NCBI GenBank assembly: GCA_964592105.1
Contig: CAZQBL010000016.1
Span: 2,560 to 66,559 of the forward strand
From: an uncultured Gammaproteobacteria bacterium
GTDB lineage: Bacteria > Patescibacteriota > Patescibacteriia > UBA10025 > JAHIVO01
Length of the DNA: 64,000 bases
Reading direction: 5' to 3'
The notes under the pieces were generated by a model. The model had not been told where the DNA came from, did not search any database, and worked only from the letters and a program-made list of their open reading frames with translations. The number at the start of each line of letters is the position of its first letter. The stretch's first letter is position 1. This document shows, piece by piece, positions 6,965-23,464 of the stretch. The position numbers and the translations under genes are program-made.

Positions 6965-7588
6965 ATGGAAATCGTAAAAATCAATCTGCATAAGCCGGAA
7001 TTGAGCGTCATTAAACAAGCGGCCGGGATTATTTTAGCGGGCGGCGTGGTGGCTTATCCGACTGATACGGCTTATGGTTTGGCAGCAGACGCTCTTAATG
7101 AAGAGGCGATCGGCAAGCTGTTTATTATTAAACATCGGATCCAAAAGCCATTACCGGTGATTGTCGATTCTCTAAAAATGTTGGCCCAGATAGCACAGGT
7201 CACGGATAAGGAAAAAAGTCTGATCAGCAAGCACTGGCCCGGGCCATTGACTATAATTTTTAAAAAAAAGGACTGTGTGCCGTCATTTTTGACACTGGGA
7301 CTTCCGACCATCGGCGTCCGCATACCCGATAGTAAAGTGGCCATGGCGATTATAAAAACCTGCAACAAACCCTTGACCTCGACAAGCGCTAATATTTCCG
7401 GTCGGGGAAATTGTTATACCACCGAATGTGTACTCCATATGTTCCAAGACCAGGAGACTCAGCCGGATTTGCTGCTGGACGCTGGTGAGTTGCCGGAGGT
7501 GCCGGTTTCGACGGTGGTCCAGGTTACGGATAAGGGACCAAAAGTTTTGCGTCAAGGACCGGTTAAAATAAAACAGCATGTTAAATAA
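6965..7588 (+). CDS. tsaC: L-threonylcarbamoyladenylate synthase (YrdC/Sua5 family, TsaC type)
   Basis: YrdC signature ILAGGVVAYPTDTAYGLAADALNEEAIGKLFIIKHR..KPLPVIV and STSANISG. At 207 aa it is the single-domain TsaC type rather than Sua5. Confidence 0.8.
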   Translation: MEIVKINLHKPELSVIKQAAGIILAGGVVAYPTDTAYGLAADALNEEAIGKLFIIKHRIQKPLPVIVDSLKMLAQIAQVTDKEKSLISKHWPGPLTIIFKKKDCVPSFLTLGLPTIGVRIPDSKVAMAIIKTCNKPLTSTSANISGRGNCYTTECVLHMFQDQETQPDLLLDAGELPEVPVSTVVQVTDKGPKVLRQGPVKIKQHVK

Positions 7589-8756
7589 ATTTAAATCTAT
7601 TGTTCATATTCCCCACTATTTTGCCAAACACCCATCTCGCGCTTTGGTGGAGTTGTATTGGGCCGTGGGCATGAATGATTTAGCTCGAGCATCCGTATCG
7701 TTGTTTGAGCCCATTTATCTTTATACCATTGGTTACTCGGTCAAGCAGATAATATTTTTTTATTTATTAGTTTATAGTGGCTATGGGTTGCTCCTGCCAT
7801 TTTTTGGTAAATTGGTTGGGCGCTTGGGATTTGAGCATTCGATTTTTTATAGTCAATTTTTTCAAATCGGTTATTATTTGACACTTTTTGGAATTTCCAA
7901 ATTCAGCTTTCTGTTTTTTGTTTCGCCTTTCGTTTTTTCCGTCCAGAAATGTCTTTATTGGCCCGCTTATCATGCTGATTTTGCAGTTTTTTCCTCGGAT
8001 GAGCAGCGCGGTCGTGAAGTGGGCGGCGTGGAAACCTTGAGCATGATAATGTTTATTGTTGGTCCGTTTATCGGCGGCGTCATTCTGGAATTGACCAATT
8101 TCAGCGTATTATTTGTCGTGGTGGCCGGACTTTTTATTCTTTCGGCTTTGCCGCTCTTGCGCATTAAGGAGGTGCACGATCGCGTGGAATTCTCTTACAG
8201 CGATGTTTTTAAGCAGTTGATTGATTCAAAACACCGCCGCAATTTCTTGGCTTATCTGGGGTTTGGTGAAGAGCTGATCGTCCTGTCGCTCTGGCCGATA
8301 TTCATTTACGTAGTTATTAAAGATTACTTGGATATTGGGGCGGTAGTGGCGCTGGCTACTTTAATCACCAGCTTTATTGTTTTGTATTTAGGGCGTTTGG
8401 CCGATAAATACAAAAAGGAACACATTATCCGTTGGGGCAGTGTTTTTTATTCCCTCGTTTGGTTATTGCGCACCATGGCTAGCAGCACTTGGCATGTTTT
8501 TGGGCTGGATACATCTTCACGTATTGCCAAGGAGGCCCTGATTGTACCGTTGGTGGCTACAACATACAGTAATGCTAGAAAAACAGAAGTACTTTCCTAT
8601 GTGGTTTTTTATGAGCAGTCGATTGCCATTACCAAATTTTTTACGGCAGCGTTGTTGCTTTCGATACTGCAGTTTGTTAGCACTCCCTGGACCGCGATTT
8701 TCGCAGTAGCCGCGGTTTTTTCGTTATTATATATGTTATTGAAAGAGAATGTATAA
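7578..8756 (+). CDS. MFS-type transporter
   Basis: About 12 predicted TM helices. An MFS motif-A-like loop GKLVGRLGFE sits between TM2 and TM3. The start overlaps the tsaC stop by 11 nt. Confidence 0.55.
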   Translation: MLNKFKSIVHIPHYFAKHPSRALVELYWAVGMNDLARASVSLFEPIYLYTIGYSVKQIIFFYLLVYSGYGLLLPFFGKLVGRLGFEHSIFYSQFFQIGYYLTLFGISKFSFLFFVSPFVFSVQKCLYWPAYHADFAVFSSDEQRGREVGGVETLSMIMFIVGPFIGGVILELTNFSVLFVVVAGLFILSALPLLRIKEVHDRVEFSYSDVFKQLIDSKHRRNFLAYLGFGEELIVLSLWPIFIYVVIKDYLDIGAVVALATLITSFIVLYLGRLADKYKKEHIIRWGSVFYSLVWLLRTMASSTWHVFGLDTSSRIAKEALIVPLVATTYSNARKTEVLSYVVFYEQSIAITKFFTAALLLSILQFVSTPWTAIFAVAAVFSLLYMLLKENV

Positions 8757-8769
8757 TGAATAATTTATA

Positions 8770-9087
8770 ATGTATAATTTTAAGAAATATCAGGATTTGG
8801 ACATCTGGAAAAAATTTTTTGTATTTGGGTTAATGATATTTAGTTTGTGTAAGAAAATTGATCATAATGCGATTAATAAAGTATTGATCAATCAGATAAT
8901 CAGATCAGTTACCTCTATTGCCGGTAATATCGCCGAGGGATCAAGCGCGTTGATCAGGAGGAATTTTATCAATTATTTGATAACGCTTCGTAAATCCGCC
9001 ATTGGACCGATAACTGGCCTGATTTTTACTTTTGCTAATAATAAAATTTGGAGAAAATCTCAAGCATTACTAAAACTAAAATCATAG
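8770..9087 (+). CDS. four-helix-bundle protein (23S rRNA intervening-sequence protein family)
   Basis: The N-terminal FKKYQDLDIWKK matches the family F.dL.vWqka start. The internal SIAGNIAEGSS...NFINYL matches the family SIPSNIAEG...EFIQFL signature. At 105 aa it is somewhat divergent. Confidence 0.45.
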   Translation: MYNFKKYQDLDIWKKFFVFGLMIFSLCKKIDHNAINKVLINQIIRSVTSIAGNIAEGSSALIRRNFINYLITLRKSAIGPITGLIFTFANNKIWRKSQALLKLKS

Positions 9088-9169: not shown

Positions 9170-10051
9170 ATGAATCTCGTTTCTCGTCAGACAATCGAAA
9201 TGTTGTGTAGGAAATATAATTTTTGGCCGCGACGGGAGTCTGGCCAGAATTTTTTGATTTCAGAAAAAGTTCTATATTCAATCGTTGAGACGGCCCAGTT
9301 GAATTCGGCTGATACTGTTTTGGAGATAGGTGGCGGATTTGGAGCGTTGACCAGCGAACTCATCAGTAGGGCAGGTTCGGTGATAACAGTTGAGCTTGAT
9401 AAGCGCCTGTCTGCCGCTCTGAAGAAAATTGCCGGTGTTAGCCGCAACCTGAAAATAATAGAGGGTGATGTTTTCAAACAGTGGCCGGTAATCAGCCGCC
9501 AGTTGGTCAATAAAAAATACAAGTTAGTCGCAAACTTGCCGTATAATATCACTTCATTGGTGCTGCGGAATTTTTTAGAAAATAAACCCAAGCCAAGCAC
9601 CATGATCCTGTTGGTTCAGAAGGAGGTGGCCGAGCGGGTCACGGCCGACCCGGGAGAAATGAGTCTACTATCAGTGGCGGTGCAGTTTTTCGGCCGGCCG
9701 GAGATTATTTCCTTAGTTTCCAGGGAGAATTTTTGGCCTCAACCAGAAGTTGATTCAGCAATTTTGAAAATCAGCGAGATTGACGATGATGCGTTCGGCT
9801 ACCAAAAGATGCTTGGAGCAATTCCAGTGAAAAAGTTTTTCAGTGTGGTCAAAATCGGTTTTTCGGCCAAGCGGAAACAGCTGCACAATAACTTGTCAGC
9901 CGGTTTTCGGCGCGATAACACGGAAATAGAGAGAATATTGAGTCTGGCCAGGATCAAAAACAAAGCCCGGGCTCAGGATTTAAGCCTGGAAAATTGGATA
10001 GAGATCGCCATTCGGCTGGATAAAAAACATGATTTTTTCAGTTTGACATAA
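9170..10051 (+). CDS. rsmA: 16S rRNA (adenine1518/1519-N6)-dimethyltransferase
   Basis: GQNFLISEKV, the SAM-binding VLEIGGGFGALT and the NLPYNITS motif, all typical of KsgA/RsmA. Confidence 0.9.
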   Translation: MNLVSRQTIEMLCRKYNFWPRRESGQNFLISEKVLYSIVETAQLNSADTVLEIGGGFGALTSELISRAGSVITVELDKRLSAALKKIAGVSRNLKIIEGDVFKQWPVISRQLVNKKYKLVANLPYNITSLVLRNFLENKPKPSTMILLVQKEVAERVTADPGEMSLLSVAVQFFGRPEIISLVSRENFWPQPEVDSAILKISEIDDDAFGYQKMLGAIPVKKFFSVVKIGFSAKRKQLHNNLSAGFRRDNTEIERILSLARIKNKARAQDLSLENWIEIAIRLDKKHDFFSLT

Positions 10052-10083: not shown

Positions 10084-10974
10084 ATGTTCAATTTTTTTGG
10101 GGAAAATAAAAACAAAACAGCCGAAAAAAATTCAATCAATCAGCCAAATTTTCCACAAAACCAGCTGACGAAGAACAACGAGAATAGTTTAAAAAAAGGG
10201 GCTTTGGTTTTTTTGTTGATTATAGGCATAGGTTCGCTGATTTTCGGTATTTTTGAAATGCAGCGCCGGATTAAATTGGTTGAAGTTGAAATCAACACCA
10301 ATACCGCTGAACTTTCTCTTTTAAATAACGAAAATACCACGAATACTCGGTCATCGGCGGTACTTGAAGATCTTCGCGGAAAAGATACGGATAAGGACGG
10401 ACTTTCTGATTACGATGAACTTTATCAGTATCGCACCAGCCCATATATCACAGATTCGGACAGCGATGGCCTCGGGGATTACCTAGAAGTGTCCCAAGGA
10501 TCAGATCCAAATTGCCCTCAGGGTCAGGACTGCGGACGCTCAGTGAATTCCAATACCAACGCGCAAGCCAACACCAATGTATTCTTTGGGGATATCCAGC
10601 CAAATGTTGATTTGAATAATTTGACGGCCGATGAGATTCGCAATCTCCTGCGTAACAACGGCGCCTCTGAAGCGGATTTGAGTCAAATAGATGATGCCTC
10701 ACTGATGCAAACTTATCATGAGGTGCTGGCCGAGCATGGCGGTACGGCTTCAACGAACACCAATAGCACGGCCCTCAATATAAATTCTCTTTCAAATGGC
10801 GATCAGCAAACAGTGACTTACGAGCAGTTGAAGAACCTAACGCCCACGGAGATCAGACAATTGCTAATTGAAACGGGTGTGGCCGAGGAAACTCTTAGCT
10901 CGGTTGACGACACTACCTTGCGGTCTATTTATCTGGATGCTTTAGAGCAGCAGCTGCAGAACTCAACCCAATAA
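10084..10974 (+). CDS. membrane-anchored protein with thrombospondin-type-3-like Asp-rich calcium-binding repeats
   Basis: An N-terminal TM (ALVFLLIIGIGSLIFGIF). Two D.D.DG..D motifs: DTDKDGLSDYDE and DSDSDGLGDYLE. A C-terminal internal duplication of about 40 aa: NLTADEIRNLLRNNGASEADLSQIDDASLMQTY and NLTPTEIRQLLIETGVAEETLSSVDDTTLRSIY. Confidence 0.5.
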   Translation: MFNFFGENKNKTAEKNSINQPNFPQNQLTKNNENSLKKGALVFLLIIGIGSLIFGIFEMQRRIKLVEVEINTNTAELSLLNNENTTNTRSSAVLEDLRGKDTDKDGLSDYDELYQYRTSPYITDSDSDGLGDYLEVSQGSDPNCPQGQDCGRSVNSNTNAQANTNVFFGDIQPNVDLNNLTADEIRNLLRNNGASEADLSQIDDASLMQTYHEVLAEHGGTASTNTNSTALNINSLSNGDQQTVTYEQLKNLTPTEIRQLLIETGVAEETLSSVDDTTLRSIYLDALEQQLQNSTQ

Positions 10975-10986
10975 AATAAGTCAACA

Positions 10987-13900
10987 ATGTTTTCAAGGAA
11001 AAAAAAAGTTAAAAAAACCAGCTCGCGGATGACTTTGTTTTTGCTGGTTTTTTGCGGCTGGCTTATCACGGCTCCGCTGCTTTTTTATACCCATGATGCT
11101 TATGCTCAGTGGGCCACGACCGAGGTCGGTCCGCAATTGCATCTCTCTATTTGGCAGAAAATCTGGAACAGTTTACAAAAGTCCTTGAAAACCGCGGGCG
11201 ATGTGGCTTTCAAAAACATGCTGAAAAGGTATTTGGATAATCTGGCTTATAATATGGCTACCAAAATCGCCACTGGCCAGCCAGGGCAAAAACCGACCTA
11301 TCCCACCAAGCCTCTTAATTTTTTGAAAGACGCCGGTGACGCGGCGGCCGGTGATTTACTGAACATGTTGGTCAACGAAACCCTCCCCGGCAAGTGCGAG
11401 GGACATTCTTATCAAACCTGTTTAAAGGATTCGGATTGTCCGCCGGTAGTACTGGCTTGCCATCCGACTCATGCTGAGGTGGTTATGGGGCGGACTCTTA
11501 ATCCAGCAAAGAACCCCGAAACGAAAGAGGGATATAATTGGTTGTTGACACATAGGGTATGCACGATAGTCAAATGCACCGAGAGTAGTTGTGATCTTCC
11601 GCCCGAGGGTTATAACGTTTGGAGTACCGTCGGTATCTGTAATCCCGCCGGTATAAATTTGTGTACTACTGATGTGGCTTTGAAATTAAAATTGACCGGG
11701 TACGCCCGGCAGTATCTTGAAGGTACCAGTGGAAAAGTAACCAGCGTTTGTCCTTTATCGGATATAATCAAGAATTACAACGCCACTACCCATCAAAAAT
11801 TGGTAGATTTGCAAAAATATTTCAATCCCCAGGCCAATCAACTGGGCATGTTCGGTGAAATAATCAGCGAAGGACAGCTGTTTAAGGCCCAAGCCGTTGA
11901 CGCAAAAAAGTTTGCCCAGTCATTGGCCGGAGAATTTTTTCCGCAAACGACAAAAATTTCCGGTGTGGTGAAAACACCCGCGTCTCTGGTAAAAAGCGCG
12001 GCTGAAGATATTCTACCAGCTTCGCTTGATCCATACGTGACTTATACCGGCTCTGCCATTGCCGACGCGGTTGGCGTTTTTACCAATACCTTGGCTTCCA
12101 AGCTCATGGAGAAATATATTTTTGGCAAGGGCTTTAATCCCGGCGCGGTTAGCCCGTCTTCCGGCAGCTCCAGAGGGTTGGCCGGTTCTATACCCGGCAT
12201 AGCTGCCGCTAAGTTGCTTTTTTCATCAATAAGCGAAACCAACTATTCAGTCGGCGGCGAAGTGGATCTATTGGGCCAGCTGGCCAGCTGTCCGGACAAG
12301 AACGATCCCTTGCCGACTAACTGCGTTATTGATAATAATTTCAGGACAGCGATAGAGCAACAGCTGACTGTTAAGGAAGCCTTGGATCAGGGCCTGCTGG
12401 GTGGTAATAAAGTATTTGGTTACGATGCCAATGGACGAGAGCCGGATTACTTGAGTGGTTATCCTTATCGGAGTTTGCTGATTTTACGCAAATACCGAAT
12501 CATCCCGGTGGGTTGGGAACTGGCCGCCGAATATATTAAGAATTTTTCCGGAGGTAATTACAGTCTGAATACTTTAATACAAGAATACCATAATACCAGT
12601 TCTCCGTTTTATCATTTGATAGATCCTAACTGGGTGTTGAAAAGTCCGGCGGTTTTTTGTAAAAAACAGGGTGCCAGCGCAAAAATCGCGGCCACTTCCC
12701 AGGTGGTTACGGGGGATACCAATCACGACGGTAGCGTTGACAAGAAAGATATTGCCGTGACTACGGTTCAGCGCGAGGATTATTGCGCTGACGAGCAAAC
12801 CTGCGTAGCCGAAGCCGATGATGGAACTTGTTTGCGCTATGGTTATTGCATTGAGGAAAAACCGATCTGGAAATTCGAAGGCGAATCTTGCCTGGCGCAA
12901 TATAACACTTGCCAAACTTTCCAGCGGCGGAATGGGGTCAGTGTTTCTTATTTGAAAAATACCATAGATGTCAATGGTTGTGACTCGAGCAACGTTGGTT
13001 GCCAGAATTATTATACTGAATTCAACTATGATACCAAGCAATGGGACAATAATGGTGATCAGATTAACTTCAATAAAAATGTCGAATCATGTTTGGCTAG
13101 CGGCGAGGGCTGTCATGAGTTTATGTTGGTTAAAGACAGCGGCGTAAACTTGCAGGTCAATTCGGATTTTGAGTCATTCACCGGCACCAAAGACGATGGG
13201 GCCGACGATGATTTTCCTGGTTGGAACACACCGGGCCTTGCTGAAGCCGTTTCGGTTGACGGCATTTCCGGTCAGACTTCGGCTAAACTTCAGGCTGGCG
13301 ATACCTTGGTTTCTGAGCCGGTTGAGACAGGTTCTATTAATAATGACAGATCGTTTACTGTTTCTTTTTATGCTAAAGCCGATAGCGCCAGTTGCGGCGC
13401 CAACCCCGGTACTTTAACAGCGAGTTTAGGCAGGCCCGTTACCGCTTTTGGTAATGTTCTGACGCCAGTCGGCACTATAAATTTAACCGAGACCTGGACG
13501 CGATATTCAGGTACGGTGTACCTGCCCAAAGTTGCGGGCAATTTAGAAACTACTGTTTACGTTGTTTTCGAACGCAACGATTGCGTGGGTTATATTGACA
13601 ATGTTCAGGTGGAGGAAGGCGGACTCACTCCATATAAGACTTACGAAGATTCGCCCAAACTATACATTAAAAAATCCCCTGGTTATCTTGACTGCGCCCA
13701 CAATCTAACCCGACCGGAATGTGCGGCTTTTGCTCTGGCTTGTGTCGCAGACGAAGTTGGCTGTCAGGCCTTTACCTCGGTTTCAACCGGCGAGGTTGTC
13801 AATGGAACAATTTCCAATCCGCTCGGCTGTAATCCGCTGGATCCGTCTTCATGCAATCAGTGCCCGGCTCAATACGCGGGTTGCAAGGCCTACCGAGAAT

Positions 13901-16900
13901 TAGCTATTACGCATGTGCCACAGCGCGCTGAACGCGACCCGGTATCTTTTGTGGCCGCGACCGGTGTTTCCTGTCCGGCCTCGGCCGTGGGCTGCGAAGA
14001 GTATACCAATCTTGATGAAGTGGCCAGAGGCGGCGAAGGCACGGAGTATTATACCTTGATCAGGCAATGCGTTAATGAGGACGCGGCTGGCGTGGCTAAT
14101 TATTATTCATGGGAAGGTTCCGATGAGTTTGGTTATCAGCTGAAAAATTATAGATTAAAAACTACAAACGTTGGTGGCAGTAACGCGCCATGTACTAACA
14201 TGAACCCCGAGGGCGGTGTCGCACCGGCCTGGCCGAATTGCAACGATAGCAGCAACCCAGCTGATTCTAATTACTGGGCAATTTGTGCCGACCCGGCCGT
14301 AGATACCTGCAATTTAGCCACTCATCAGTGCAACATTACTAACGCCGCATGTAATACAAATCAGGATTGTATTGACAATCGTCTGGCGGCTAACCCCGAC
14401 TGCACTGAGTTTTACGATGAAAGCGGTAACATTTATTATCGCCTGAAATCACGCGTGATATATGCTTCCGATCAGTGCATAAATTATCGTAATTCAATAG
14501 ACGGCGCTTCTCTGGTATATCACATGATTCCCGGACAAGGCTTGTCCTGCAGCGCTGCTTACGCTGGTTGCCGTGCCTATAAAGGCAATACCGGTGATAA
14601 CGTGCGGACTATTTATCAAAATAATTTTGAAAACGGCACGGTAAATCCTTGGACCGGCAATGCTTACTACAGCAATGAGTCAGTCCAGCAGGGCGGACAT
14701 TCCATGCTGATTGCCAACGTCGCAAATTACGAAAATGTGGGCACCGAACTCGGCTTTGCGGCAGGTAATTCGTATTCGATTTCTTTCTGGGCCAAAGCCG
14801 GCGGTGTTGATACGAATATTAGCGTAGTTCTCAACACGGCCACGCCATTGACTTTCGCTGGGCAGGCCACGGCCAGAAGCGGAGAGTGGAATCGCTATGA
14901 GTTAGGTCCTTTATTCGTGCCAGAAAATGCGGATTTGACGGCGGCGCGTTTATCTATATTCTCTACCAACGCTTTCTATCTGGATTCAATAGTAATTAAG
15001 CAGGTTAGGGACAATGTTTATTTCATCAAGGATTCATATCAGGAATGCTCGGGTTGGGAAAATTGCGACGAATACGTGGATAGAAATAATTCCACTCACT
15101 ATTTGAAATCTTTTACCAAATTGTGCAGTCCCGATAAGGTCGGTTGTTCGGCTATGATTGACACCCAGAATTCAAGATCGCCGTTTGCGACTGTTTATCC
15201 TTTGAATTCTACGCTGCCGATCAACAATCTTACGGCGCCGGCCGATACAGTCACGACTCTGATTAATGACCCGATCAAATATTGTTCGGCTAATGATAAA
15301 GGTTGCCAACTTTTAGGCAAACCGAATTTGGACAATAATCTTAATATTGTTAATTTTACCGACACTTATGTACGCAATAACCCGGATGATTATGACAATA
15401 TCCTGTGTCTGAATGAGGAAATCGGTTGTGAAGAATATAAAGTTGAGGGTTCAAGCCCCATGTATTTCAAAGATCCAGGAGAAAGAGTTTGTGAATTTAA
15501 GCGCGTGACCGGCCAGGAAGTCAGCGGCTGGTATAAAAGAGGTACAGAGAGCGGGGCGCCGGACTGTCCAACTACCAGTGGGGTTTGTGTTGCCGGTCCC
15601 CGTGCCGGTAACTGGTGTGCTGTGGATTCTGACTGTGGCGTGGGCGGTGCCTGCAGTCCTATTCCTGAAAGACCAATAGAGGACGCCACTGGTCCCTGGG
15701 TAGGCGTGTGCCAGGCTGCGGCTTCGGGGTGCACGGAAATTAGGGATCCGGAAGATCCGCAATTCTGCGACGCGCGAATACCAGGTGATTGTAAATCGTA
15801 TTACTATATTTCCAATACCCTAGATAAGGGTTCGTGCAACGGTATTGTCAGTCGAGATGAGGGTTGCCGCCTCTTCAACGACACTTCATCAACAACACTG
15901 AATTACTCCGCCGATAATTCTCCTGATAAACGGCCGCCGGTTTTATGCAGTGATCCTGCAGGTCAGGCAATGGATTGTAATGCCAATACTATTATTAAGA
16001 TACGCCGTGACCGCGTCTGCGGCACCTGGCTGGAGTGCAGGAGCGCCTGGCCCGTAAAAAATAAACAAGGTAAAATCGAAAACCTTTGTCTGCAGTTATC
16101 CGCTTGCGACCAGTTTGATCCGGATTCGGGGCAGTGTACACACCCCGTACTCCAATCCCATGCTAATGAGACCTATAACTCACCAGTTTATGTTGATGAA
16201 ATTAAAAATTATTCTGGCTTGGTCACGGCGGGTTTGGAATGGGGTAGGCGATGCAAGAATAATCCCAACATTGTGTGTACGAACAACGCCCAGTGCAAAG
16301 TTTGCAGTAATGACGTAACTCGCCCCTGTGCCACCAGTGCCAATTGTCAGAACGGCGGTGTTTGTCCAGATGACGAACAGGCAGTCTGTCCGGCCACGCC
16401 GCAGATCATCCAAGGATATTATCCGTATAGCACCATGAATGAAGTTGGCAAGAGCGGCGCATCAAGTATAGATATGATCAGGAACGGGGATTTTGGTGAC
16501 AGCAATGCTGTGGCTAATAAAATAGTGAGTGATTATATCGCCTGCGGTGATGGGTCTTGTGGGAGTCAAATATTGGCAGAAGCGCCGATTCAAACATCTG
16601 AGTTTGGCGTTTGGAATAATCCTTTGCAGGGTGCCGGTGTGTCCATAGGCGAGGAAACCGCTGACGGATTTATTTCAGAGCAAGGTAGCGCCAATCTTGA
16701 TGAAAATAATGTGCTGATTGTCAGCCATCCTGAAACATACCCTGTGCCGGCTTGGTGGGGTGTTGCGGTTACTATTCCTGAGATTTCCTCAAGCCAGGAA
16801 TTTGCTTTGAGTTATAAAGTTAAAAGATCAGCCTTGCCCGCGGGTTCCGGTAATCGGATAGATGTCTTTTTGGCTTGGGATGCGGCTGAACAGCCTGTTC

Positions 16901-19131
16901 ATGACCGCGGACAAACCTGGATGCCTGTCAGCCAGTCTTATGATGTCGGCACAGAGTGGAAAGAGTTCATCGTAAAGATGAATATCTCCGAGCTGGTGGA
17001 TAACTGGATAGCCGGTGATCCCGGGAATCTTCGGCCGTCTGATAAATCGGCAATTATGTCTGAAATAAACGCAGCCAGTGATTTCAGTTTGAGATTCCAG
17101 TCGCGCACCGGCTCGGCCATTGATTTTTACCTTGATGATGTGTCCATGAAACCGGTCTTGGAAGTGCAGAACCCCCCGTCTCCCGCGACTTTGGTGCGGC
17201 GTACTTGCCGCATGTATCCGGAGTCGAATGCTTCATCCTGCACTTATACTGATGAAAATAATGTCACTCACCGTGGCTGGTACGGTTATTGTTTGGAAGC
17301 CGATCCGCACAACCCCAACTACTGCCTTAATTGGTGGCCGATAGACATATTGAGCGGTGAGACTAATATTTTTAACACTACCCAGGTCGGCTATCAGGGC
17401 CGTTCGCCATTGTATATGTGCGTCCAGGCAGAAGGGAATTATAATCAAGGAGGTTTTAACGGTGACGTGGAATGTCAGTCCAATAATAACTATTGCGGCG
17501 ATGATGTACCCATCGAACTTTGTGGTAAACAGCCCACTGGTTATTATAGAGTTTTTCATAGCCACATTGCCGGGGGAGACGTAAGCGAAGATGAGAGTTG
17601 TGCGGGAGAACATAGCTGTGGTCGTATGGAAGACTTGGCCGATTGTGACGATCAGACAATTTCAGGGATTTGTGGTTGTGACGAGACTCCTGTGGCGCCC
17701 GGCTGGCGCAATATTACCGATCCGGCTGATCAATATTATGAATGGCAGATTGATAAAATATATTGGACAGCGCAAGCGGTTTCGCACAGCGATTGGCGAC
17801 CAACCCGAGCCTATCCAGGACAATATGTACCAGGTGTTGGAGATGTTTACTTCATCACTGATCGCAGTAACAACTGGGGCAATGATCCCGGGAGTGGTCA
17901 CTGGGAATTTGCAGGTAATATTTTGGATATTCGCGTCGAATTTAATGCCCAACATCGACTTTCAAGAGTCTATGCTTATATGTTTGATGGTAGTGATAAT
18001 GAAGGCGGCGCCTGGGTTCAGGGAGTGATACAGTTGCGCGAATATTGCACGCAAATTGCCCAAGTAGTTCAATCCAATGGCGAGAACAAGGCCTGGACAG
18101 GCCGGACCACTCAATTAGCCGGCTATAAAGTTCCTGATTTGCTTTTCGGCTACACCCAGGATTATGTACCGTTTGGCGGTATTGTTCAGCCGGCTTCTTC
18201 CAGCGATCCTGAGAGCTGGTCAGCGGGCAGCGGGCTCGGACCCCTCTATATTCAAAAGACTTCGGCTTCAACCTCGCGGGGTGGAAGTCCATACAGTTGC
18301 GCTAATCCTAACGGGTGTCGTAACCGTACCTGTAGCACTGGTGAGAATGACTGTTCGGACAATAGTGATGTAATAGACTGTTATGATGGCCCCGACGATA
18401 ATATCAATTTGGCGGACGACAATGGGTATTGTATCGGTTTGGGTACCGGATTTTGTAGCGACATGAACACGGTTCTGTGTGATCAGGATTCTGATTGTGG
18501 TTCAAATGGACTATGTACTATTCCTAAATTTCCCAATAGCGGTGGCGCGGCCAATATCACCGATCCGCAGCAGGCTATCATGAGAATCAGGGAGTTATTT
18601 GCCGATGCTTACGATGCCTGGACCTGGAATCCAGCTACTGGTGAGTATGATAATACTCCTAATCTGATCACGTCAAATTGGCGGACAAGCTTTGCCGATA
18701 TGACAGTCTGCCCGGGTAATAATAGGACAGGTGCTTACCCCGCTGATTATTGCGGCGTTACGCCGGTTGCCAACAATTTCTCCGTTGGTTCAGGAAACCA
18801 GACACACATCACCGTGAACAAAGCCCAGTTGATCCAGCTTAACTTTAATATTAATGTTAATCCCGAGCAGCTGCCGATCCAGTCGGTGGAAGTAGCCTGG
18901 GATAATGATATTTTACACAATTCTCTAATCCAGGGCCCGTTCGGCAGCGGTCCGATGATGTTGGCGCATTTCTATGATGTGCCAGGTATTTATACCCCAC
19001 GCGTTCAAATAGTCGATAATTGGGGCTTCTGCAGTGATGATCCTCGGGGAGGAATGACCAGGGGTGATACTTGTACTCGTGATTTAAATCGTTGGCTTTC
19101 CTCGAATATTACTATTATGGTTAAAGATTAG
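10987..19131 (+). CDS. giant (2714 aa) secreted cysteine-rich surface protein with carbohydrate-binding-module-like (CBM4/9-like) jelly-roll domains
   Basis: A signal peptide ends AYA/QW. More than 100 Cys are present with a recurring (V/A/I)GC(Q/E/K/R)(A/E)(Y/F) motif. Three segments resemble the CBM4/9 family: ...FYAKADSASCG...YIDNVQVEEG, ...SFWAKAGGVD...FYLDSIVIKQV and ...DFYLDDVSM. Confidence 0.7.
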   Translation: MFSRKKKVKKTSSRMTLFLLVFCGWLITAPLLFYTHDAYAQWATTEVGPQLHLSIWQKIWNSLQKSLKTAGDVAFKNMLKRYLDNLAYNMATKIATGQPGQKPTYPTKPLNFLKDAGDAAAGDLLNMLVNETLPGKCEGHSYQTCLKDSDCPPVVLACHPTHAEVVMGRTLNPAKNPETKEGYNWLLTHRVCTIVKCTESSCDLPPEGYNVWSTVGICNPAGINLCTTDVALKLKLTGYARQYLEGTSGKVTSVCPLSDIIKNYNATTHQKLVDLQKYFNPQANQLGMFGEIISEGQLFKAQAVDAKKFAQSLAGEFFPQTTKISGVVKTPASLVKSAAEDILPASLDPYVTYTGSAIADAVGVFTNTLASKLMEKYIFGKGFNPGAVSPSSGSSRGLAGSIPGIAAAKLLFSSISETNYSVGGEVDLLGQLASCPDKNDPLPTNCVIDNNFRTAIEQQLTVKEALDQGLLGGNKVFGYDANGREPDYLSGYPYRSLLILRKYRIIPVGWELAAEYIKNFSGGNYSLNTLIQEYHNTSSPFYHLIDPNWVLKSPAVFCKKQGASAKIAATSQVVTGDTNHDGSVDKKDIAVTTVQREDYCADEQTCVAEADDGTCLRYGYCIEEKPIWKFEGESCLAQYNTCQTFQRRNGVSVSYLKNTIDVNGCDSSNVGCQNYYTEFNYDTKQWDNNGDQINFNKNVESCLASGEGCHEFMLVKDSGVNLQVNSDFESFTGTKDDGADDDFPGWNTPGLAEAVSVDGISGQTSAKLQAGDTLVSEPVETGSINNDRSFTVSFYAKADSASCGANPGTLTASLGRPVTAFGNVLTPVGTINLTETWTRYSGTVYLPKVAGNLETTVYVVFERNDCVGYIDNVQVEEGGLTPYKTYEDSPKLYIKKSPGYLDCAHNLTRPECAAFALACVADEVGCQAFTSVSTGEVVNGTISNPLGCNPLDPSSCNQCPAQYAGCKAYRELAITHVPQRAERDPVSFVAATGVSCPASAVGCEEYTNLDEVARGGEGTEYYTLIRQCVNEDAAGVANYYSWEGSDEFGYQLKNYRLKTTNVGGSNAPCTNMNPEGGVAPAWPNCNDSSNPADSNYWAICADPAVDTCNLATHQCNITNAACNTNQDCIDNRLAANPDCTEFYDESGNIYYRLKSRVIYASDQCINYRNSIDGASLVYHMIPGQGLSCSAAYAGCRAYKGNTGDNVRTIYQNNFENGTVNPWTGNAYYSNESVQQGGHSMLIANVANYENVGTELGFAAGNSYSISFWAKAGGVDTNISVVLNTATPLTFAGQATARSGEWNRYELGPLFVPENADLTAARLSIFSTNAFYLDSIVIKQVRDNVYFIKDSYQECSGWENCDEYVDRNNSTHYLKSFTKLCSPDKVGCSAMIDTQNSRSPFATVYPLNSTLPINNLTAPADTVTTLINDPIKYCSANDKGCQLLGKPNLDNNLNIVNFTDTYVRNNPDDYDNILCLNEEIGCEEYKVEGSSPMYFKDPGERVCEFKRVTGQEVSGWYKRGTESGAPDCPTTSGVCVAGPRAGNWCAVDSDCGVGGACSPIPERPIEDATGPWVGVCQAAASGCTEIRDPEDPQFCDARIPGDCKSYYYISNTLDKGSCNGIVSRDEGCRLFNDTSSTTLNYSADNSPDKRPPVLCSDPAGQAMDCNANTIIKIRRDRVCGTWLECRSAWPVKNKQGKIENLCLQLSACDQFDPDSGQCTHPVLQSHANETYNSPVYVDEIKNYSGLVTAGLEWGRRCKNNPNIVCTNNAQCKVCSNDVTRPCATSANCQNGGVCPDDEQAVCPATPQIIQGYYPYSTMNEVGKSGASSIDMIRNGDFGDSNAVANKIVSDYIACGDGSCGSQILAEAPIQTSEFGVWNNPLQGAGVSIGEETADGFISEQGSANLDENNVLIVSHPETYPVPAWWGVAVTIPEISSSQEFALSYKVKRSALPAGSGNRIDVFLAWDAAEQPVHDRGQTWMPVSQSYDVGTEWKEFIVKMNISELVDNWIAGDPGNLRPSDKSAIMSEINAASDFSLRFQSRTGSAIDFYLDDVSMKPVLEVQNPPSPATLVRRTCRMYPESNASSCTYTDENNVTHRGWYGYCLEADPHNPNYCLNWWPIDILSGETNIFNTTQVGYQGRSPLYMCVQAEGNYNQGGFNGDVECQSNNNYCGDDVPIELCGKQPTGYYRVFHSHIAGGDVSEDESCAGEHSCGRMEDLADCDDQTISGICGCDETPVAPGWRNITDPADQYYEWQIDKIYWTAQAVSHSDWRPTRAYPGQYVPGVGDVYFITDRSNNWGNDPGSGHWEFAGNILDIRVEFNAQHRLSRVYAYMFDGSDNEGGAWVQGVIQLREYCTQIAQVVQSNGENKAWTGRTTQLAGYKVPDLLFGYTQDYVPFGGIVQPASSSDPESWSAGSGLGPLYIQKTSASTSRGGSPYSCANPNGCRNRTCSTGENDCSDNSDVIDCYDGPDDNINLADDNGYCIGLGTGFCSDMNTVLCDQDSDCGSNGLCTIPKFPNSGGAANITDPQQAIMRIRELFADAYDAWTWNPATGEYDNTPNLITSNWRTSFADMTVCPGNNRTGAYPADYCGVTPVANNFSVGSGNQTHITVNKAQLIQLNFNINVNPEQLPIQSVEVAWDNDILHNSLIQGPFGSGPMMLAHFYDVPGIYTPRVQIVDNWGFCSDDPRGGMTRGDTCTRDLNRWLSSNITIMVKD

Positions 19132-19139
19132 CCAAAACA

Positions 19140-22100
19140 ATGATATTTAGCGGGCTTCGGAAAAAAATATCAGACAGATTTCATAAATCTACGAAACTCT
19201 TTTCATTGAGCGCGTTTTCGGTGGCGGCAATTTTTTTATTAGGTGTAATTCTTATAATCATTCCCCACTCGGCCCAGGCCGGAATTGTCGAAACTTTGGG
19301 CGAGGGTCTGGCTTGGATAATTTTGCGGGTTGTTTCCTTGCTGGGAAAACTACTCGTGCTTATTATTAATTTATTTATCAACATCGCCCAGTACAATAAT
19401 TTCATCAATTCCGTGCCGGTGAGCGTGGGCTGGAGCATTGTGCGCGATGTCTGTAACATGTTTTTCATCGTGGCTCTCTTGGTTATCGCTTTTGGCACTA
19501 TTTTGAAAATCGAACGCTACCGCTACAACCGCCTGCTGGTCAACCTCATCATCATGGCCATACTTATCAATTTTTCCAAAGTCATCGCTGGTTTTTTTAT
19601 TGATTTCGGACAGGTAGTGATGATGACTTTTGTTAATGCCTTCAAAGACGCGGCCGCGGGCAATTTCACCCAGGCCTTCCGCATGAGGGAAATATTGGAG
19701 CTGCGGGATGATATTCCCGAAATTAACACCGCTGATTTTCTGGGAGCGGCCGTTTTAGCCCTAGCTATGGTGCTTATTGCCTTGGTGGTAATGATTGCTC
19801 TTTTGGTAGTGATTTTGGTCAGGATTATAATGTTGTGGATTCTGGTGGTGCTCTCCCCCTTGGCTTATCTGCTGTCGGTTTTGCCCGGCTCCTGGCAGCA
19901 GCAGTCCTCCAAGTGGTGGTCAAATTTTGGTAAATGGGTAGCTATTGGTCCGGTTCTGGCTTTTTTTGTCTGGTTGTCATTGACTGTTATCGGCGATCCG
20001 AGTGGCACCAAGGATTTTATTACTACAACCAAGGATGAGGTTAGCGCCAGCGGTCAGCTGGTAGAAACGGTAGGCAATGACAGGTTATCAGCGGCCATTA
20101 CTAAAGCCTCGTCAACTGATAACATGCTGGGATTTGCTTTGGGCATTTCCATGCTGATAATGGCGTTATTAACCGCCCAGCAAATGGGCGGGATAGCTGG
20201 AAATTTTGCGGGCAAGGCCCTAAATAAAATCCAAAGCGGTGCTATGGCCGTGACGGGCGCGCGCTGGGTTCAGGACAGATGGCGGGCTTTTCAGGGCATG
20301 CGTGAGCAAAAACGCAAAGAAAAAGCGGCCAGGTTTGGCGCCAGGGCTTATGGTATTTACGAAGGCGCTAAAAGCATCCCCGGAGCAGCGTTTAAAGCCG
20401 CGGGCAAAGGCATTGATTATGTCGCGGAGAAGGCCGGTAAAAAAATTGCTGGTGATGGCACTAGTAGATTCAGAAAGGGAGCCGGCTGGGTTGCCGAAAA
20501 AGCTATTAAAGTTGGTGCGCGCTCGTTAGTGGTTGGAGGCGCGGGCGCTTTGACTGGTGGAGCGGGTTTTGGCTTGGCGCTCGGGGGCGTCGCCACCCCG
20601 CTGGCTTTGACGACCGCCAAAATGATGAGGGAAGGCAGTAAGGGGGTAAGTGATTTTACGAAAAAATTGGAAAAAGGTTTCATGAACAGGGTCGCTGCTT
20701 CCATGACCGAAAAAGGCGATTTCGTGGATTCAAACGGAAAAGCAGTTGATTCAAGCGTGAGGGGTCATTACGCATATGATAACCGAGCCGGAGCTTATTT
20801 AAAGGATACAACCATGGCCAGGTTTAAAAATCTTGATTTACAGGGCGTTAGCTATGATGACACAGAAAAAAAATGGCAAGCTCATGTGAAGAGGTCTGAT
20901 GGTAGTATAGAAAAGATACATTTAGGAAACGACGAATTATTAACTAAAGATGGGTCGCTGGTTGATAAATATGGAAAAATTGAGGATGTTGATAACCCTG
21001 ATTTGAAGTATAAATATGATCAAGAAGCGATGACTTATTATCGGGTTAATGATCGCGGCGAAGCCGTGGATAAAGACGGAAGGATTGCCCAAAAATTAGA
21101 AGACCGCGTTTACGCTGGAGGTAAAAGGTTGCCTAAATTCGTTCAGGAACTGGGCTATGGTTGGGCTTTGGGCAGGACCCAGTCCTGGGCTTTGCGCGCC
21201 AGAGGTGAACAGGAAAGAATTAGCAAAAGTTCCCAGGAAATGATCGCGGCCGGGATTTCTCCGGAATTGATGCACCGCGGTCTTAATGATAACAATTTAT
21301 CCAATGACGCTCGTCTGGCTCGCGGTCTGGCTTTGGCGGCTAGAGACGGCTTCAAGGGTATGGACGTGTCCATGGCCCGCGCCGACGTGGAACTCATAAA
21401 GAAATTGACCGCCTCCAATACTTTATTGGCTAAAGAATTTCAGGAAAACATGTACAAGCGCTTTGCGCATTTGTACCATGATTTGTCCACGGAAACCGGC
21501 CGAGGCCAGCTGAAAAAAGCCGCGGCGGAAGGCCGGGTGGATTTAACCCGCCAGGACGATTCATCATTGACTCCAGATTTTTTGAAAGTTATGAGGGATC
21601 ATTTTGGTAAAAAATATCTATCTAAGCTGGAAGATGCCGCTTCAACTGATGATCGAGAGAAGAAGATAATCAGTTCTTTGAAGTCTTTGGTTAATGAGCT
21701 TGGCAATCAAGTAAGAGATGAAAAAGGTGATAAAAGGATTCTGCCCGATCGTTTGGCCTTGGCAAATATCAGTGGCGATCTGCCAACCGCACTGGGTCGA
21801 GTTATAAAAGATAAAGATACTGGTGAAGAGAGAATGAATCCAGAATATTCCAATAATGTCGCGGATTTCATTAAAAATGCTAAAGTTGAACATATTATCA
21901 AAATAAACCCTGATTTGATTGATATCGACGAAAACGGCCTGATAAATAATGAGGCAATTAAAAGATTGATTGATAAATATAATTTGCAAGGAGACGAGCA
22001 AGCGAAAATTGATCAGGCCAAGGCACTTATTAACGCTACGATAGAGGGCTTCAAGGCTATAGATAAAAATCAAATAAATTCCGTGCTCAGATCGAGAGAA

Positions 22101-22232
22101 GCAACACAGAGATTGAAGGTATTGATTGATAGGGTTTATAAAAAAACTCACGCAAATGAACAAGATAATGTGGATAAGCAAAATGATGGAGATCAGGATG
22201 AGGAAGAAGATAAGGGTTCAGCAATAAAATAA
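19140..22232 (+). CDS. VirB6/TrbL-like polytopic membrane protein with a long hydrophilic C-terminal extension
   Basis: The first ~350 aa carry at least 6 TM helices. A Gly/Ala-rich segment and about 550 aa of charged, coiled-coil-like sequence follow. The protein sits in a T4SS-like gene neighbourhood; the assignment rests on topology and context only. Confidence 0.45.
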   Translation: MIFSGLRKKISDRFHKSTKLFSLSAFSVAAIFLLGVILIIIPHSAQAGIVETLGEGLAWIILRVVSLLGKLLVLIINLFINIAQYNNFINSVPVSVGWSIVRDVCNMFFIVALLVIAFGTILKIERYRYNRLLVNLIIMAILINFSKVIAGFFIDFGQVVMMTFVNAFKDAAAGNFTQAFRMREILELRDDIPEINTADFLGAAVLALAMVLIALVVMIALLVVILVRIIMLWILVVLSPLAYLLSVLPGSWQQQSSKWWSNFGKWVAIGPVLAFFVWLSLTVIGDPSGTKDFITTTKDEVSASGQLVETVGNDRLSAAITKASSTDNMLGFALGISMLIMALLTAQQMGGIAGNFAGKALNKIQSGAMAVTGARWVQDRWRAFQGMREQKRKEKAARFGARAYGIYEGAKSIPGAAFKAAGKGIDYVAEKAGKKIAGDGTSRFRKGAGWVAEKAIKVGARSLVVGGAGALTGGAGFGLALGGVATPLALTTAKMMREGSKGVSDFTKKLEKGFMNRVAASMTEKGDFVDSNGKAVDSSVRGHYAYDNRAGAYLKDTTMARFKNLDLQGVSYDDTEKKWQAHVKRSDGSIEKIHLGNDELLTKDGSLVDKYGKIEDVDNPDLKYKYDQEAMTYYRVNDRGEAVDKDGRIAQKLEDRVYAGGKRLPKFVQELGYGWALGRTQSWALRARGEQERISKSSQEMIAAGISPELMHRGLNDNNLSNDARLARGLALAARDGFKGMDVSMARADVELIKKLTASNTLLAKEFQENMYKRFAHLYHDLSTETGRGQLKKAAAEGRVDLTRQDDSSLTPDFLKVMRDHFGKKYLSKLEDAASTDDREKKIISSLKSLVNELGNQVRDEKGDKRILPDRLALANISGDLPTALGRVIKDKDTGEERMNPEYSNNVADFIKNAKVEHIIKINPDLIDIDENGLINNEAIKRLIDKYNLQGDEQAKIDQAKALINATIEGFKAIDKNQINSVLRSREATQRLKVLIDRVYKKTHANEQDNVDKQNDGDQDEEEDKGSAIK

Positions 22233-22351: not shown

Positions 22352-23464
22352 ATGGACAATCATACAATTCCAGCCATAGACGACAAAAAAGAAAAGGAAG
22401 AGGCTTTACAGCTTTTCCGCGAAGGCATACGCGATGTTTTGTCTTTGGACCACCCGGATGACGGTTTTATTATCAGCCAGTTCAATTTTACTTTAATCAG
22501 GTTCATGCTTGAGGATCCTATGTTCAGGCGGAATATCGAACGGGCCTTGTACGAAAACAAAGAAGAGCTGACAGAAGGTAGTTTACTTCTGGGCGACAAA
22601 GAACAGCCACCGACGGTGGGCAACTGGCTTAAAGATTTTATCCAGCGCGAAGGCTCCGGGCTTTTTGATAACGTGGTTTTATCTCGTTATTTGACTAGTT
22701 CCCCAAACACCAGGCATATCTCAGAAAAAGATAGGCAGAAAGTTAGGAAGCTGTTGCGGCTGTACCGTAACTTCAAGTTTTTTCCAGAGAGCATGGCTGA
22801 CAGAATCGTCGCTCAATGGGAAATAATTCCCATGCCAGCCGGTGAGGAAGTTTTGACTAAGGCTGCCACTGTTAAGACGCCTGGTCAGCAGGGCGAAATT
22901 GAGAATATCGAATTTACTCCTTCGGCCAATCCTTTGGACATGCTTAAGGCTAAATACGAAACTTATCGCCTGAAACGCGAACCAGTCCTAAAAATCGAAG
23001 ACGAGCTTATAGTTAAAACCCGCGGTGAAATTTCTAAACTCTCCAGAGAGTTGTCAGTGGCTACGCGCACTGGCGATAAAAATAAAGCTATTGCCTGTCT
23101 GAAGCTAATGGCCAGGCAGGGAGCCTTATTGAATTCTTTGTATGACAATCTTTCTTGGCTGGCGGCGGTCTCGGAATACATTCAGAAAAAATACACTGGA
23201 AAATTTCCAGCTCCGGAGGTGGCCATGGCTGTAGCTAATTTGAAATTGGACGCCAAAAACCCGGCGGCCATTTCGGAATTACTACAGTACATTCTTAAGG
23301 AAAAATTAAAACTCAACGAAAACGATTCAGCGCTTATCGGCGTGGAAATAGGTCAGCTTTTGGGCGGGGCCTATCAGGGGCTGGCTTATGGCAATCAGGC
23401 CACGGGTAGTTTTGAGTGGAGCCAGAATAAGATTGTGGATAAGAAATTGGTTAGCGAGATTTAA
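22352..23464 (+). CDS. hypothetical protein
   Basis: 370-aa ORF with coding-like composition and no recognisable motif. It is part of the colinear + strand gene string. Confidence 0.4.
   Translation: MDNHTIPAIDDKKEKEEALQLFREGIRDVLSLDHPDDGFIISQFNFTLIRFMLEDPMFRRNIERALYENKEELTEGSLLLGDKEQPPTVGNWLKDFIQREGSGLFDNVVLSRYLTSSPNTRHISEKDRQKVRKLLRLYRNFKFFPESMADRIVAQWEIIPMPAGEEVLTKAATVKTPGQQGEIENIEFTPSANPLDMLKAKYETYRLKREPVLKIEDELIVKTRGEISKLSRELSVATRTGDKNKAIACLKLMARQGALLNSLYDNLSWLAAVSEYIQKKYTGKFPAPEVAMAVANLKLDAKNPAAISELLQYILKEKLKLNENDSALIGVEIGQLLGGAYQGLAYGNQATGSFEWSQNKIVDKKLVSEI

Follow-up and report, generated by a model that had tools for sequence, protein, structure and literature searches.

A giant cysteine-rich protein family with CBM_4_9-like domains encoded next to a type IV secretion-like gene cluster in Patescibacteria

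Background

The Patescibacteria, or Candidate Phyla Radiation (CPR), account for a sizeable part of bacterial diversity and, it seems, live attached to host cells. They possess a type IV secretion system (T4SS)-like apparatus, the role of which one paper describes as completely unknown (PMC11665869). In the only species in which this was tested, the apparatus is essential: epibiotic growth of Southlakia epibionticum requires the T4SS as well as several surface proteins of glycan-binding or dockerin type (PMC10633639). The patescibacterial T4SS is related to FATA systems and is of a monoderm type without the VirB7/9/10 outer core, and a dedicated survey detected no PrgB-like adhesin for it (PMC12102498). 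Here we describe the product of a giant open reading frame (ORF), 10987..19131 on the forward strand of the window, by which we mean the whole 64,000-nucleotide (nt) stretch analysed (contig CAZQBL010000016.1 of GenBank assembly GCA_964592105.1, positions 2,560 to 66,559). The protein is rich in cysteine, carries domains related to the carbohydrate-binding module (CBM) family CBM_4_9, and is encoded directly upstream of a VirB6-like gene. Our reading, to which we assign a probability of roughly 0.45, is that it is an exported, disulfide-stiffened, glycan-binding surface stalk or adhesin acting in concert with the T4SS-like apparatus.

Several described systems invite comparison. In plasmid pCF10, an MPF-FATA system, prgB lies upstream of prgH (VirB6-like), prgI (VirB3) and prgJ (VirB4), and the giant gene has the matching operon position. 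Like PrgB, its product would be a large exported surface protein with a proposed role in cell-to-cell contact; unlike PrgB, it has no LPXTG motif, is twice the size, is Cys-rich with CBM modules, and shares no sequence or fold similarity. Homology to PrgB or antigen I/II was seen neither as a PDB sequence match nor in the listed top 50 of Foldseek against PDB, and no known T4SS protein family was matched in Pfam, NCBIfam or PDB. Large Cys-rich extracellular proteins of more than 1.5 thousand amino acids (aa) with a signal peptide, for which stiffening or attachment was proposed, have been reported in Peregrinibacteria/Peribacteria of the CPR (PMC4736985). They resemble the giant protein in size, signal peptide and cysteine richness, but they were described by composition only and in another CPR lineage, with no homology demonstrated to the present family, which is distinguished by a defined C-x5-G-C hairpin, CBMs and T4SS synteny. 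The Myxococcus cysteine-rich repeat mentioned in the same paper (TIGR02232; PMC4736985) was not matched in the giant protein by an NCBIfam scan at E<=0.01.

Three further likenesses are structural. Two domains pass the gathering score of CBM_4_9 (PF02018) and their modelled fold superposes on CBM22, CBM16 and CBM4 structures, with a third domain related by profile; unlike the known modules, they occur without a recognisable glycoside hydrolase and are set between Cys-hairpin blocks of a 2714-aa non-enzymatic scaffold. Phage receptor-binding, host-specificity and minor tail proteins with CBM-cenC modules are likewise multi-beta-sandwich proteins, with a role in host recognition (BFVD E 1e-12 to 1e-9), but the global TM-score is only about 0.1, the matches are to single beta-sandwich modules, and the window has no phage context. 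Finally, the Cys-rich hairpin ladders of eukaryotic receptors (furin-like, GCC2/GCC3; Elapor1, PDB 9vql) match by Foldseek at E 6.4e-8 and likewise have stacked short hairpins, whose closure by disulfides is a prediction in the giant protein, but with a TM-score of 0.09-0.12, a root-mean-square deviation (rmsd) of 37 A and no sequence relation, Elapor1 is only a lead for the hairpin-ladder fold.

Results and discussion

A recurring cysteine hairpin

The giant ORF is intact. Its product of 2714 aa contains 113 cysteines (4.2% of residues), which bears out an earlier note, made from the letters alone, that had described a secreted 2714-aa protein with over 100 cysteines. That note had also listed ten words of a recurring motif, (V/A/I)GC.(A/E)(Y/F). 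All ten words are present (aa 670, 924, 964, 1001, 1193, 1385, 1438, 1479, 1580 and 1625) and the recurrence is far above chance, but the strict pattern fits only 5 of them (0.018 expected; five or more in 0 of 2000 shuffles). The shorter form GC.[AE][YF] occurs 6 times against 0.10 expected by shuffling. A fuller description of the unit is C-x5-G-C-x2-(Y/F/L/I/M), in which a second cysteine sits 7 residues upstream of the GC cysteine; it has 10 copies in the giant protein, and the family median is 8-9. Neighbouring cysteines are spaced by exactly 7 residues in 18 cases, compared with 4.8 in shuffled sequences.

Alignment of the giant protein with 61 homologues gave a conservation map in which the paired cysteines stand out. 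The C-x6-C pairs 665/672, 702/709, 919/926, 996/1003, 1188/1195, 1380/1387, 1433/1440 and 1474/1481 are kept in 100% of the homologues, as are 635/642 and the C-x5-C pairs 600/606, 615/621 and 1354/1360. The pair 1575/1582 is kept in 90%; in the pair 959/966, C959 is invariant and C966 is aligned in 51%.

The core of the protein (aa 590-1745, 1156 aa) was modelled with AlphaFold2 from a 32-sequence alignment. The model is confident (mean predicted local distance difference test, pLDDT, of 82.8; predicted TM-score, pTM, of 0.65) and almost wholly beta, which suggests a defined architecture and not beads on a string. When DSSP states were mapped on the motifs, ten sites shared the same succession of strand, Cys, two residues, a 3-10 turn, one residue, Gly-Cys and a strand of 5-6 residues, and the pattern E-C-xx-HHH-x-GC-EEEEE was seen at 635/642 and 702/709. 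This modelled geometry is the one expected for a local i/i+7 disulfide staple, and we predict disulfides at these sites.

Outside the CBM-like domains, the cysteine unit matched nothing in Pfam, NCBIfam, PHROGs or PDB sequences, in agreement with the earlier statement that it could not be placed in a named family. A phmmer comparison of the whole protein with PDB sequences gave 0 matches, and the NCBIfam scan at E<=0.01 yielded a sole sub-threshold match, to GTA_spike_fiber, over the first CBM-like domain. A phage origin was ruled out, as the giant protein has 0 matches in PHROGs and its context consists of housekeeping and T4SS genes. The G+C content is 0.46-0.485 over the giant and VirB6-like genes (12001..22000) compared with 0.40-0.44 in the flanks, which is probably an effect of the Gly/Ala/Cys-rich composition.

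Internal repeats and jelly-roll domains

An internal repeat with statistical support, on which the earlier claim had been staked beforehand, is present. Three Cys-rich regions, R1 (aa 590-716), R2 (aa 895-1205) and R3 (aa 1345-1745), were compared by hhalign on family profiles. They match mutually with probabilities of 86-91%, E of 9e-7 to 5e-6 and scores of 45-50, and hairpin module A matches modules B and C with probabilities of 89-93; column-shuffled controls scored 12 +/- 2 (maximum below 20) and reversed controls 13.5-16, so that the repeat is no artefact of cysteine composition. The hairpins align in register (635/642-665/672-702/709, 919/926-959/966-996/1003 and 1354/1360-1380/1387-1433/1440), and hairpin modules B and C (listed below) are collinear over 236 columns (hhalign E 5e-6). 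The repeat is visible by family profiles only, and self-BLASTP of the giant protein returned no internal repeat at E<=10.

Scanning with 150-aa profile windows revealed that aa 711-1008 match aa 1197-1445, that is, a CBM together with the hairpin block that follows it, and that the CBM core also matches aa 1926-2059. These matches show a supermodule of hairpin block plus jelly-roll that is present in triplicate, with hhalign scores of 45-78 within it compared with about 12 for shuffled controls. The architecture indicated by the profiles is thus an N-terminal domain, the triplicated supermodule and a C-terminal region, laid out as follows (all on the + strand).

10987..11109 (+), aa 1-41: putative signal peptide or signal anchor, with a basic n-region, a 19-aa hydrophobic stretch and AYA followed directly by Q
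11110..12258 (+), aa 42-424: N-terminal region, mostly long helices in a low-pLDDT model
12259..12681 (+), aa 425-565: compact alpha/beta domain, GYPYRSL.ILRKYRIIPVGWELAA ... VDPNWVLK, pLDDT 92-98
12715..12750 (+), aa 577-588: single putative dockerin/EF-hand-type Ca-binding loop, DTNHDGSVDKKD, from a regex scan
12784..13134 (+), aa 600-716: hairpin module A, Cys pairs 600/606, 615/621, 635/642, 665/672 and 702/709
13147..13641 (+), aa 721-885: CBM_4_9-like beta-sandwich 1 (CBM1), Pfam PF02018 match at aa 721-852
13693..14601 (+), aa 903-1205: hairpin module B, Cys pairs 912/919, 919/926, 959/966, 996/1003 and 1188/1195
14608..15006 (+), aa 1208-1340: CBM_4_9-like beta-sandwich 2 (CBM2), Pfam PF02018 match at aa 1208-1326
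15046..16146 (+), aa 1354-1720: hairpin module C, Cys pairs 1354/1360, 1380/1387, 1433/1440, 1474/1481, 1575/1582, 1617/1627, 1678/1684 and 1701/1707
16459..17166 (+), aa 1825-2060: third jelly-roll-like domain, by profile-profile comparison only, 8-13% column identity
17167..19131 (+), aa 2061-2714: C-terminal region, with conserved Cys knots at 2074-2145 and 2438-2510 and a hypervariable stretch at aa 2150-2350

Module B holds a variable Cys-rich insert at aa ~1051-1150.

Of the three CBM4/9-like domains claimed at the outset, two are supported by Pfam gathering score and the third solely by profile-profile comparison. PF02018 scores 55.2 bits on the whole giant protein, and both CBM1 (32.1 bits, E 1.7e-7) and CBM2 (41.2 bits, E 2.7e-10) exceed the gathering threshold of 25.9 when scanned alone. 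CBM2 is the best conserved of the three, and CBM1 has a local pLDDT of ~80-93. The two align with each other with an hhalign probability of 97.6. The third domain (aa ~1825-2060) has no Pfam match even at E<=10, but over its full length its profile matches CBM1 (probability 97.0, E 8.8e-11) and CBM2 (96.4, E 1.4e-9), with a score of 70.6 against 8.4 +/- 1.5 for the shuffled control. This combination points to a divergent CBM homologue below Pfam detection and not to a Pfam-level member.

Structural comparison agrees with the family matches. Foldseek of the core model against PDB gave clean single-domain matches to CBM22, CBM4-2 and CBM16 with target TM-scores of 0.6-0.72, for example CBM22 4xuo_A (TM-score 0.72, rmsd 2.2 A), and in the model both CBM1 and CBM2 adopt the predicted jelly-roll beta-sandwich fold. 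Among the predicted viral structures of BFVD, the best matches were phage receptor-binding, minor-tail and host-specificity proteins with CBM-cenC modules.

N-terminal and C-terminal parts

Judging from the sequence, Sec export of the giant protein is very likely, presumably with cleavage. A basic stretch, a hydrophobic stretch and an A-x-A motif occur in the query and its homologues, and the N-terminal layout with a P-x-x-A-x-A consensus is common to all homologues examined; export itself is what these features predict. The following region (aa 42-424) has the family consensus motif AYDTAT..ASG..GQKPLF...GDAAAGDF, and its aa 150-225 form a variable insert rich in Cys. The compact domain at aa 425-565 contains one of the most conserved parts of the family (aa 451-550, ~55% mean identity), with an invariant Glu at aa 511 (GWELAA) and a near-invariant Asp at aa 546 (DPNW). 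The N-terminal part had no match in Pfam or NCBIfam; its best E was 2.0 for Foldseek against PDB and 0.2 for a 32-sequence profile against PDB sequences.

The putative Ca loop at aa 577-588 lies at the junction with the core and is found at the same alignment position in 8 sequences including the query. It is one loop only, with no repeat pair, and Dockerin_1 (PF00404) has no significant Pfam match in the query. In many homologues a loop of hairpin module C is interrupted, at the equivalent of aa ~1405-1414 of the query, by PF00404 dockerin pairs, and for this reason NCBI names homologues "dockerin type I domain-containing protein". Such pairs were seen among homologues P0002-P0023, and the protein of the window is without them.

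The C-terminal region (aa 2061-2714) has no Pfam match at E<=10, and a scan for anchors found no C-terminal transmembrane (TM) helix or LPXTG motif in 62 family members. Conservation falls towards this end: mean column identity over the 61 homologues goes from 47-56% for the N-terminal domain and hairpin blocks through 28-38% (CBM2) and 16-23% (CBM1) to 8-13% for the third CBM, and aa 2150-2350, where occupancy is low, reach just 5-9%. Some genomes encode the protein as two consecutive ORFs, one for the N-terminus plus core (~1.7-1.9 thousand aa) and one for the C-terminal part. Split genes were noted at L016, L018, L023 and L033 (also L029, L061 and L083), with the break at aa ~1700-1750, approximately where conservation drops.

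Family size and distribution

A word-indexed search yielded 61 homologue clusters of 1.5-4.0 thousand aa, the best being 49% identical over 99% of the query, and all source-named clusters among the 61 are from Patescibacteria (Kerfeld-, Falkow- and Uhrbacteria). An exhaustive phmmer comparison of the N-terminal 570 aa with 1.84 billion representatives (50% identity clusters) gave 1094 matches at E<=1e-3, of which 488 reach E<=1e-30. The domain lies near the N-terminus in nearly all of the best 150 of the 1094 matches, and most of these proteins are giants. A pattern scan using one genome per GTDB species placed relatives in at least 537 genomes. The informative record titles among the 80 loci listed name the Patescibacteria/Parcubacteria group, Kerfeld-, Falkow-, Uhr-, Kuenen- and Nomurabacteria, Paceibacter and Microgenomatus.

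Many family loci carry the title "uncultured Gammaproteobacteria" (binchicken co-assembly metagenome-assembled genomes; L008, L020, L030, L031, L033, L039-L044 and others), and one is titled Pirellulales. The loci examined among the records with these titles show patescibacterial gene order, and the Gammaproteobacteria titles look like mislabels.

Conserved linkage to T4SS genes

The surroundings of the giant gene were surveyed in 86 related loci with flanks of ~10 kb, counts being limited to loci with enough flank. In 68 of the 73 informative loci the giant gene directly follows a gene for a membrane protein with TSP3 repeats, and a VirB6-like gene lies downstream in at least 54 of 63. PrgI, TrsD and VirB4 come next wherever the 10-kb flank reaches, and this order is shared by L005, L006, L028, L030, L034, L040, L058 and L063. 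At L006 the giant and VirB6-like genes stay together, although the pair is cut off from PrgI and VirB4 by housekeeping genes. Adjacency of the giant gene to T4SS genes on the same strand is thus conserved, with housekeeping genes also syntenic. In the window, 12 nt separate the stop of the TSP3 protein gene from the start of the giant gene, and 8 nt separate the stop of the giant gene from the start of the VirB6-like gene.

The earlier note had placed the giant gene immediately before a VirB6-like gene. The neighbour is indeed directly downstream, but the label does not come from its own sequence: the 1030-aa protein of the window has no Pfam match at E<=10 and no PDB match, alone or as a profile. 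It is called VirB6-like because 7 of 30 orthologues (32-50% identical) match Pfam TrbL/VirB6 (best E 3.5e-7), that is, by transitivity. The genes around the giant ORF, which itself occupies 10987..19131, are as follows.

3283..6309 (+): LeuRS
6965..7588 (+): Sua5
7578..8756 (+): MFS transporter
8770..9087 (+): 23S rRNA-intervening-sequence-protein gene (PF05635)
9170..10051 (+): KsgA
10084..10974 (+): 296-aa single-pass membrane protein, TM segment at aa 39-57, TSP3-type Ca-binding repeats (Pfam TSP3_bac, E 9e-6)
19140..22232 (+): 1030-aa VirB6/TrbL-like protein, 7-8 N-terminal TM helices and a long soluble C-terminal part
22352..23464 (+): first of two soluble proteins
23707..25014 (+): second soluble protein
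25017..25439 (+): PrgI/VirB3-like ORF, 140 aa, two TM segments
25536..26219 (+): TrsD/TraC-like protein
26222..28114 (+): VirB4 ATPase
28338..28916 (+): first of two small membrane proteins
28929..29774 (+): second small membrane protein
29830..31032 (+): Cys-rich T4SS_pilin protein, 22 Cys in 400 aa, outside the TM segments
31042..32304 (+): TM-anchored 420-aa protein with weak beta-propeller-type matches
32305..33654 (+): Cys-rich T4SS_pilin-SLT protein, 24 Cys in 449 aa, an SLT transglycosylase fusion
33661..34998 (+): RadA
35675..37756 (opposite strand): RecG

The RadA/RecG neighbourhood is the arrangement given for class ABY1 (PMC12102498). Since the T4SS_pilin proteins of the cluster are Cys-rich as well, all of the apparatus that lies outside the cell seems to rely on disulfides. 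The PrgI/VirB3-like ORF, which falls below the 150-aa limit of the ORF list, fills an apparent gap between a 435-aa ORF and the TrsD-like gene, and its orthologues at L005 and L006 carry Pfam PrgI. In the TSP3 protein, the TM helix and two TSP3 Ca loops are followed by an internal duplication of L.NLT..EIR.LL......L...DD..L...Y. The PF05635 gene lies between the MFS transporter and KsgA genes; at the same place, the syntenic loci L001-L006 have no called gene of this Pfam family.

The window contains a second giant ORF, 53477..62779 (+), which encodes 3100 aa from a GTG start and has a Dockerin_1 match at aa 811-859 and a weak BNR_4 match. It was ruled out as a paralogue (BLASTP E>=0.32), although C..DSDC-type motifs are common to both proteins. 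It is preceded by ORFs of 1315 aa (47251..51198) and 698 aa (51248..53344) without Pfam matches, and is followed by the gene for PilM (type IV pilus) at 62862..63980.

Possible functions of the giant protein

As a surface stalk or adhesin of the T4SS-like apparatus, the protein would be exported by Sec and its N-terminal part (the helical region and aa 425-565) retained at the envelope, where this base would probably contact the TSP3 membrane protein and the polytopic VirB6-like protein. Each copy of the supermodule would place short C-x5-G-C hairpin blocks on the flanks of a CBM4/9-type beta-sandwich, with an i/i+7 disulfide probably closing each hairpin, and the staples would yield a rigid, protease-resistant extracellular rod with its base proximal and its tip distal. 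The three CBM-like domains would bind surface polysaccharide, and the poorly conserved distal parts (the third CBM, aa 2150-2350 and the C-terminus) may set the host surface that is recognised. We favour this reading because an export signal occurs in the query and all homologues examined; because the cysteine pairs are invariant or nearly so, with uniform predicted geometry at ten sites; because CBM_4_9 domains are accompanied by viral-library matches to phage receptor-binding and tail proteins; because the 12-nt and 8-nt gaps occur in a conserved TSP3-giant-VirB6-like order; and because both the conservation gradient and the split genes separate the N-terminus and core from the C-terminal part. 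The confident all-beta model, the TrbL/VirB6 matches of the neighbour's orthologues and the prgB-like operon position also speak for it, as do the failure to detect a PrgB-like adhesin in these bacteria (PMC12102498) and the essential surface proteins of Southlakia epibionticum (PMC10633639).

A number of observations weigh against it. PDB sequence, Foldseek and profile searches gave no similarity to known T4SS adhesins or components, and adhesins do not usually have a core conserved this strongly. Belonging to a CBM family does not fix a ligand. Many of these organisms inhabit anoxic groundwater, which bears on the predicted disulfides. The 62-sequence scan found no wall or membrane anchor beyond the N-terminal signal, and the N-terminal model has an overall pLDDT of 64.7 and is poor outside aa 425-565. 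LeuRS, Sua5 and KsgA upstream are as syntenic with the giant gene as the T4SS genes are, and gene order alone is therefore no proof of a functional link. Lastly, the available flanks of L004, L060, L074, L085 and L086 showed no VirB6-like gene, and that of L004 no T4SS gene of any kind.

The same data could be read as describing a structural part of the T4SS that spans the envelope, i.e., a stiff stalk, a sheath or a conduit that crosses the wall and S-layer, whose CBMs bind the cell's own peptidoglycan or surface glycan. Such a part would account for the very conserved N-terminus and hairpin core with cysteine pairs invariant in 61 homologues, for the breadth of the family (~1000 clusters at 50% identity), for the defined global architecture (pTM 0.65) and for the tight coupling to the VirB6-like gene, and it would supply a wall-spanning element that is otherwise missing from a system without the VirB7/9/10 outer core (PMC12102498). 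The protein nevertheless lacks any feature that points to oligomerisation or to a channel, it resembles no T4SS structural protein, and the hypervariable distal third and varying dockerin insertions fit better with a diversifying interaction surface. We consider this explanation unlikely.

We are equally doubtful of a general surface coat or adhesin without a mechanistic tie to the T4SS, for which adjacency would simply reflect the frozen gene order of streamlined genomes. The co-synteny of LeuRS, Sua5, MFS and KsgA, the housekeeping genes that part the giant/VirB6-like pair from PrgI/VirB4 at L006, and the L004 locus where no T4SS gene follows would all be expected under it; large Cys-rich extracellular proteins are general in CPR (PMC4736985), and the window itself encodes a second, unrelated giant protein elsewhere. 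What argues for a closer tie is that the giant gene stays with the VirB6-like gene even where the cluster is displaced (L006), that the same-strand gaps are only 8-12 nt, and that the T4SS pilin-domain proteins of the cluster are likewise Cys-rich in their extracellular parts.

A secreted carbohydrate-active enzyme or effector, with aa 425-565 as a novel catalytic domain that the CBMs target to host wall polysaccharide, is improbable. Glycoside hydrolases are the usual partners of CBM_4_9 modules, the N-terminal domain, with the invariant Glu 511 and near-invariant Asp 546, is conserved more than any other part, and T4SS clusters usually need a wall hydrolase; but no enzyme was matched in Pfam, NCBIfam, PDB sequences or Foldseek, the cluster already has the SLT-domain protein (32305..33654), and a non-catalytic scaffold of ~2100 aa would be unusual. 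Least credible of all is that the C-x6-C pairs bind metal (e.g., Zn or Fe shared between neighbouring hairpins) and form no disulfides, as the invariance of the pairs and the anoxia of many host environments might suggest, but the protein is probably exported, both cysteines flank one 3-10 turn in every unit as in a local staple, the motif has no conserved His/Asp partners, and the conserved cysteines are even in number and paired.

Conclusions

We return to the exported stalk or adhesin as the favoured reading. In its most specific form, the giant protein would be the host-contacting extracellular element of the patescibacterial T4SS: a disulfide-stapled rod, anchored by its N-terminal domain to the VirB6-like translocon, whose CBMs read host glycans and which holds host and episymbiont together during T4SS transfer of DNA, proteins or nutrients. 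We regard this fuller version as rather unlikely. The family is large, coherent and uncharacterised, and is present in databases as hypothetical or "dockerin" proteins. Our literature search found no description of a giant Cys-hairpin/CBM protein family, and, as far as we could find, the hairpin module, the N-terminal domain and the linkage to the T4SS are undescribed.

With ~1000 clusters, occurrence in at least 537 species genomes and its tie to the VirB6-like gene, the giant family offers a concrete candidate for a contact element in lineages including the Kerfeld-, Falkow-, Uhr- and Kuenenbacteria. Its variable distal domains could serve to predict host range from metagenomes. Two of its sequence modules, the C-x5-G-C hairpin block and the aa 425-565 domain, are absent from Pfam and PDB; if the protein is indeed the element by which the T4SS contacts the host, they would be two new protein families defining a new class of T4SS accessory component.

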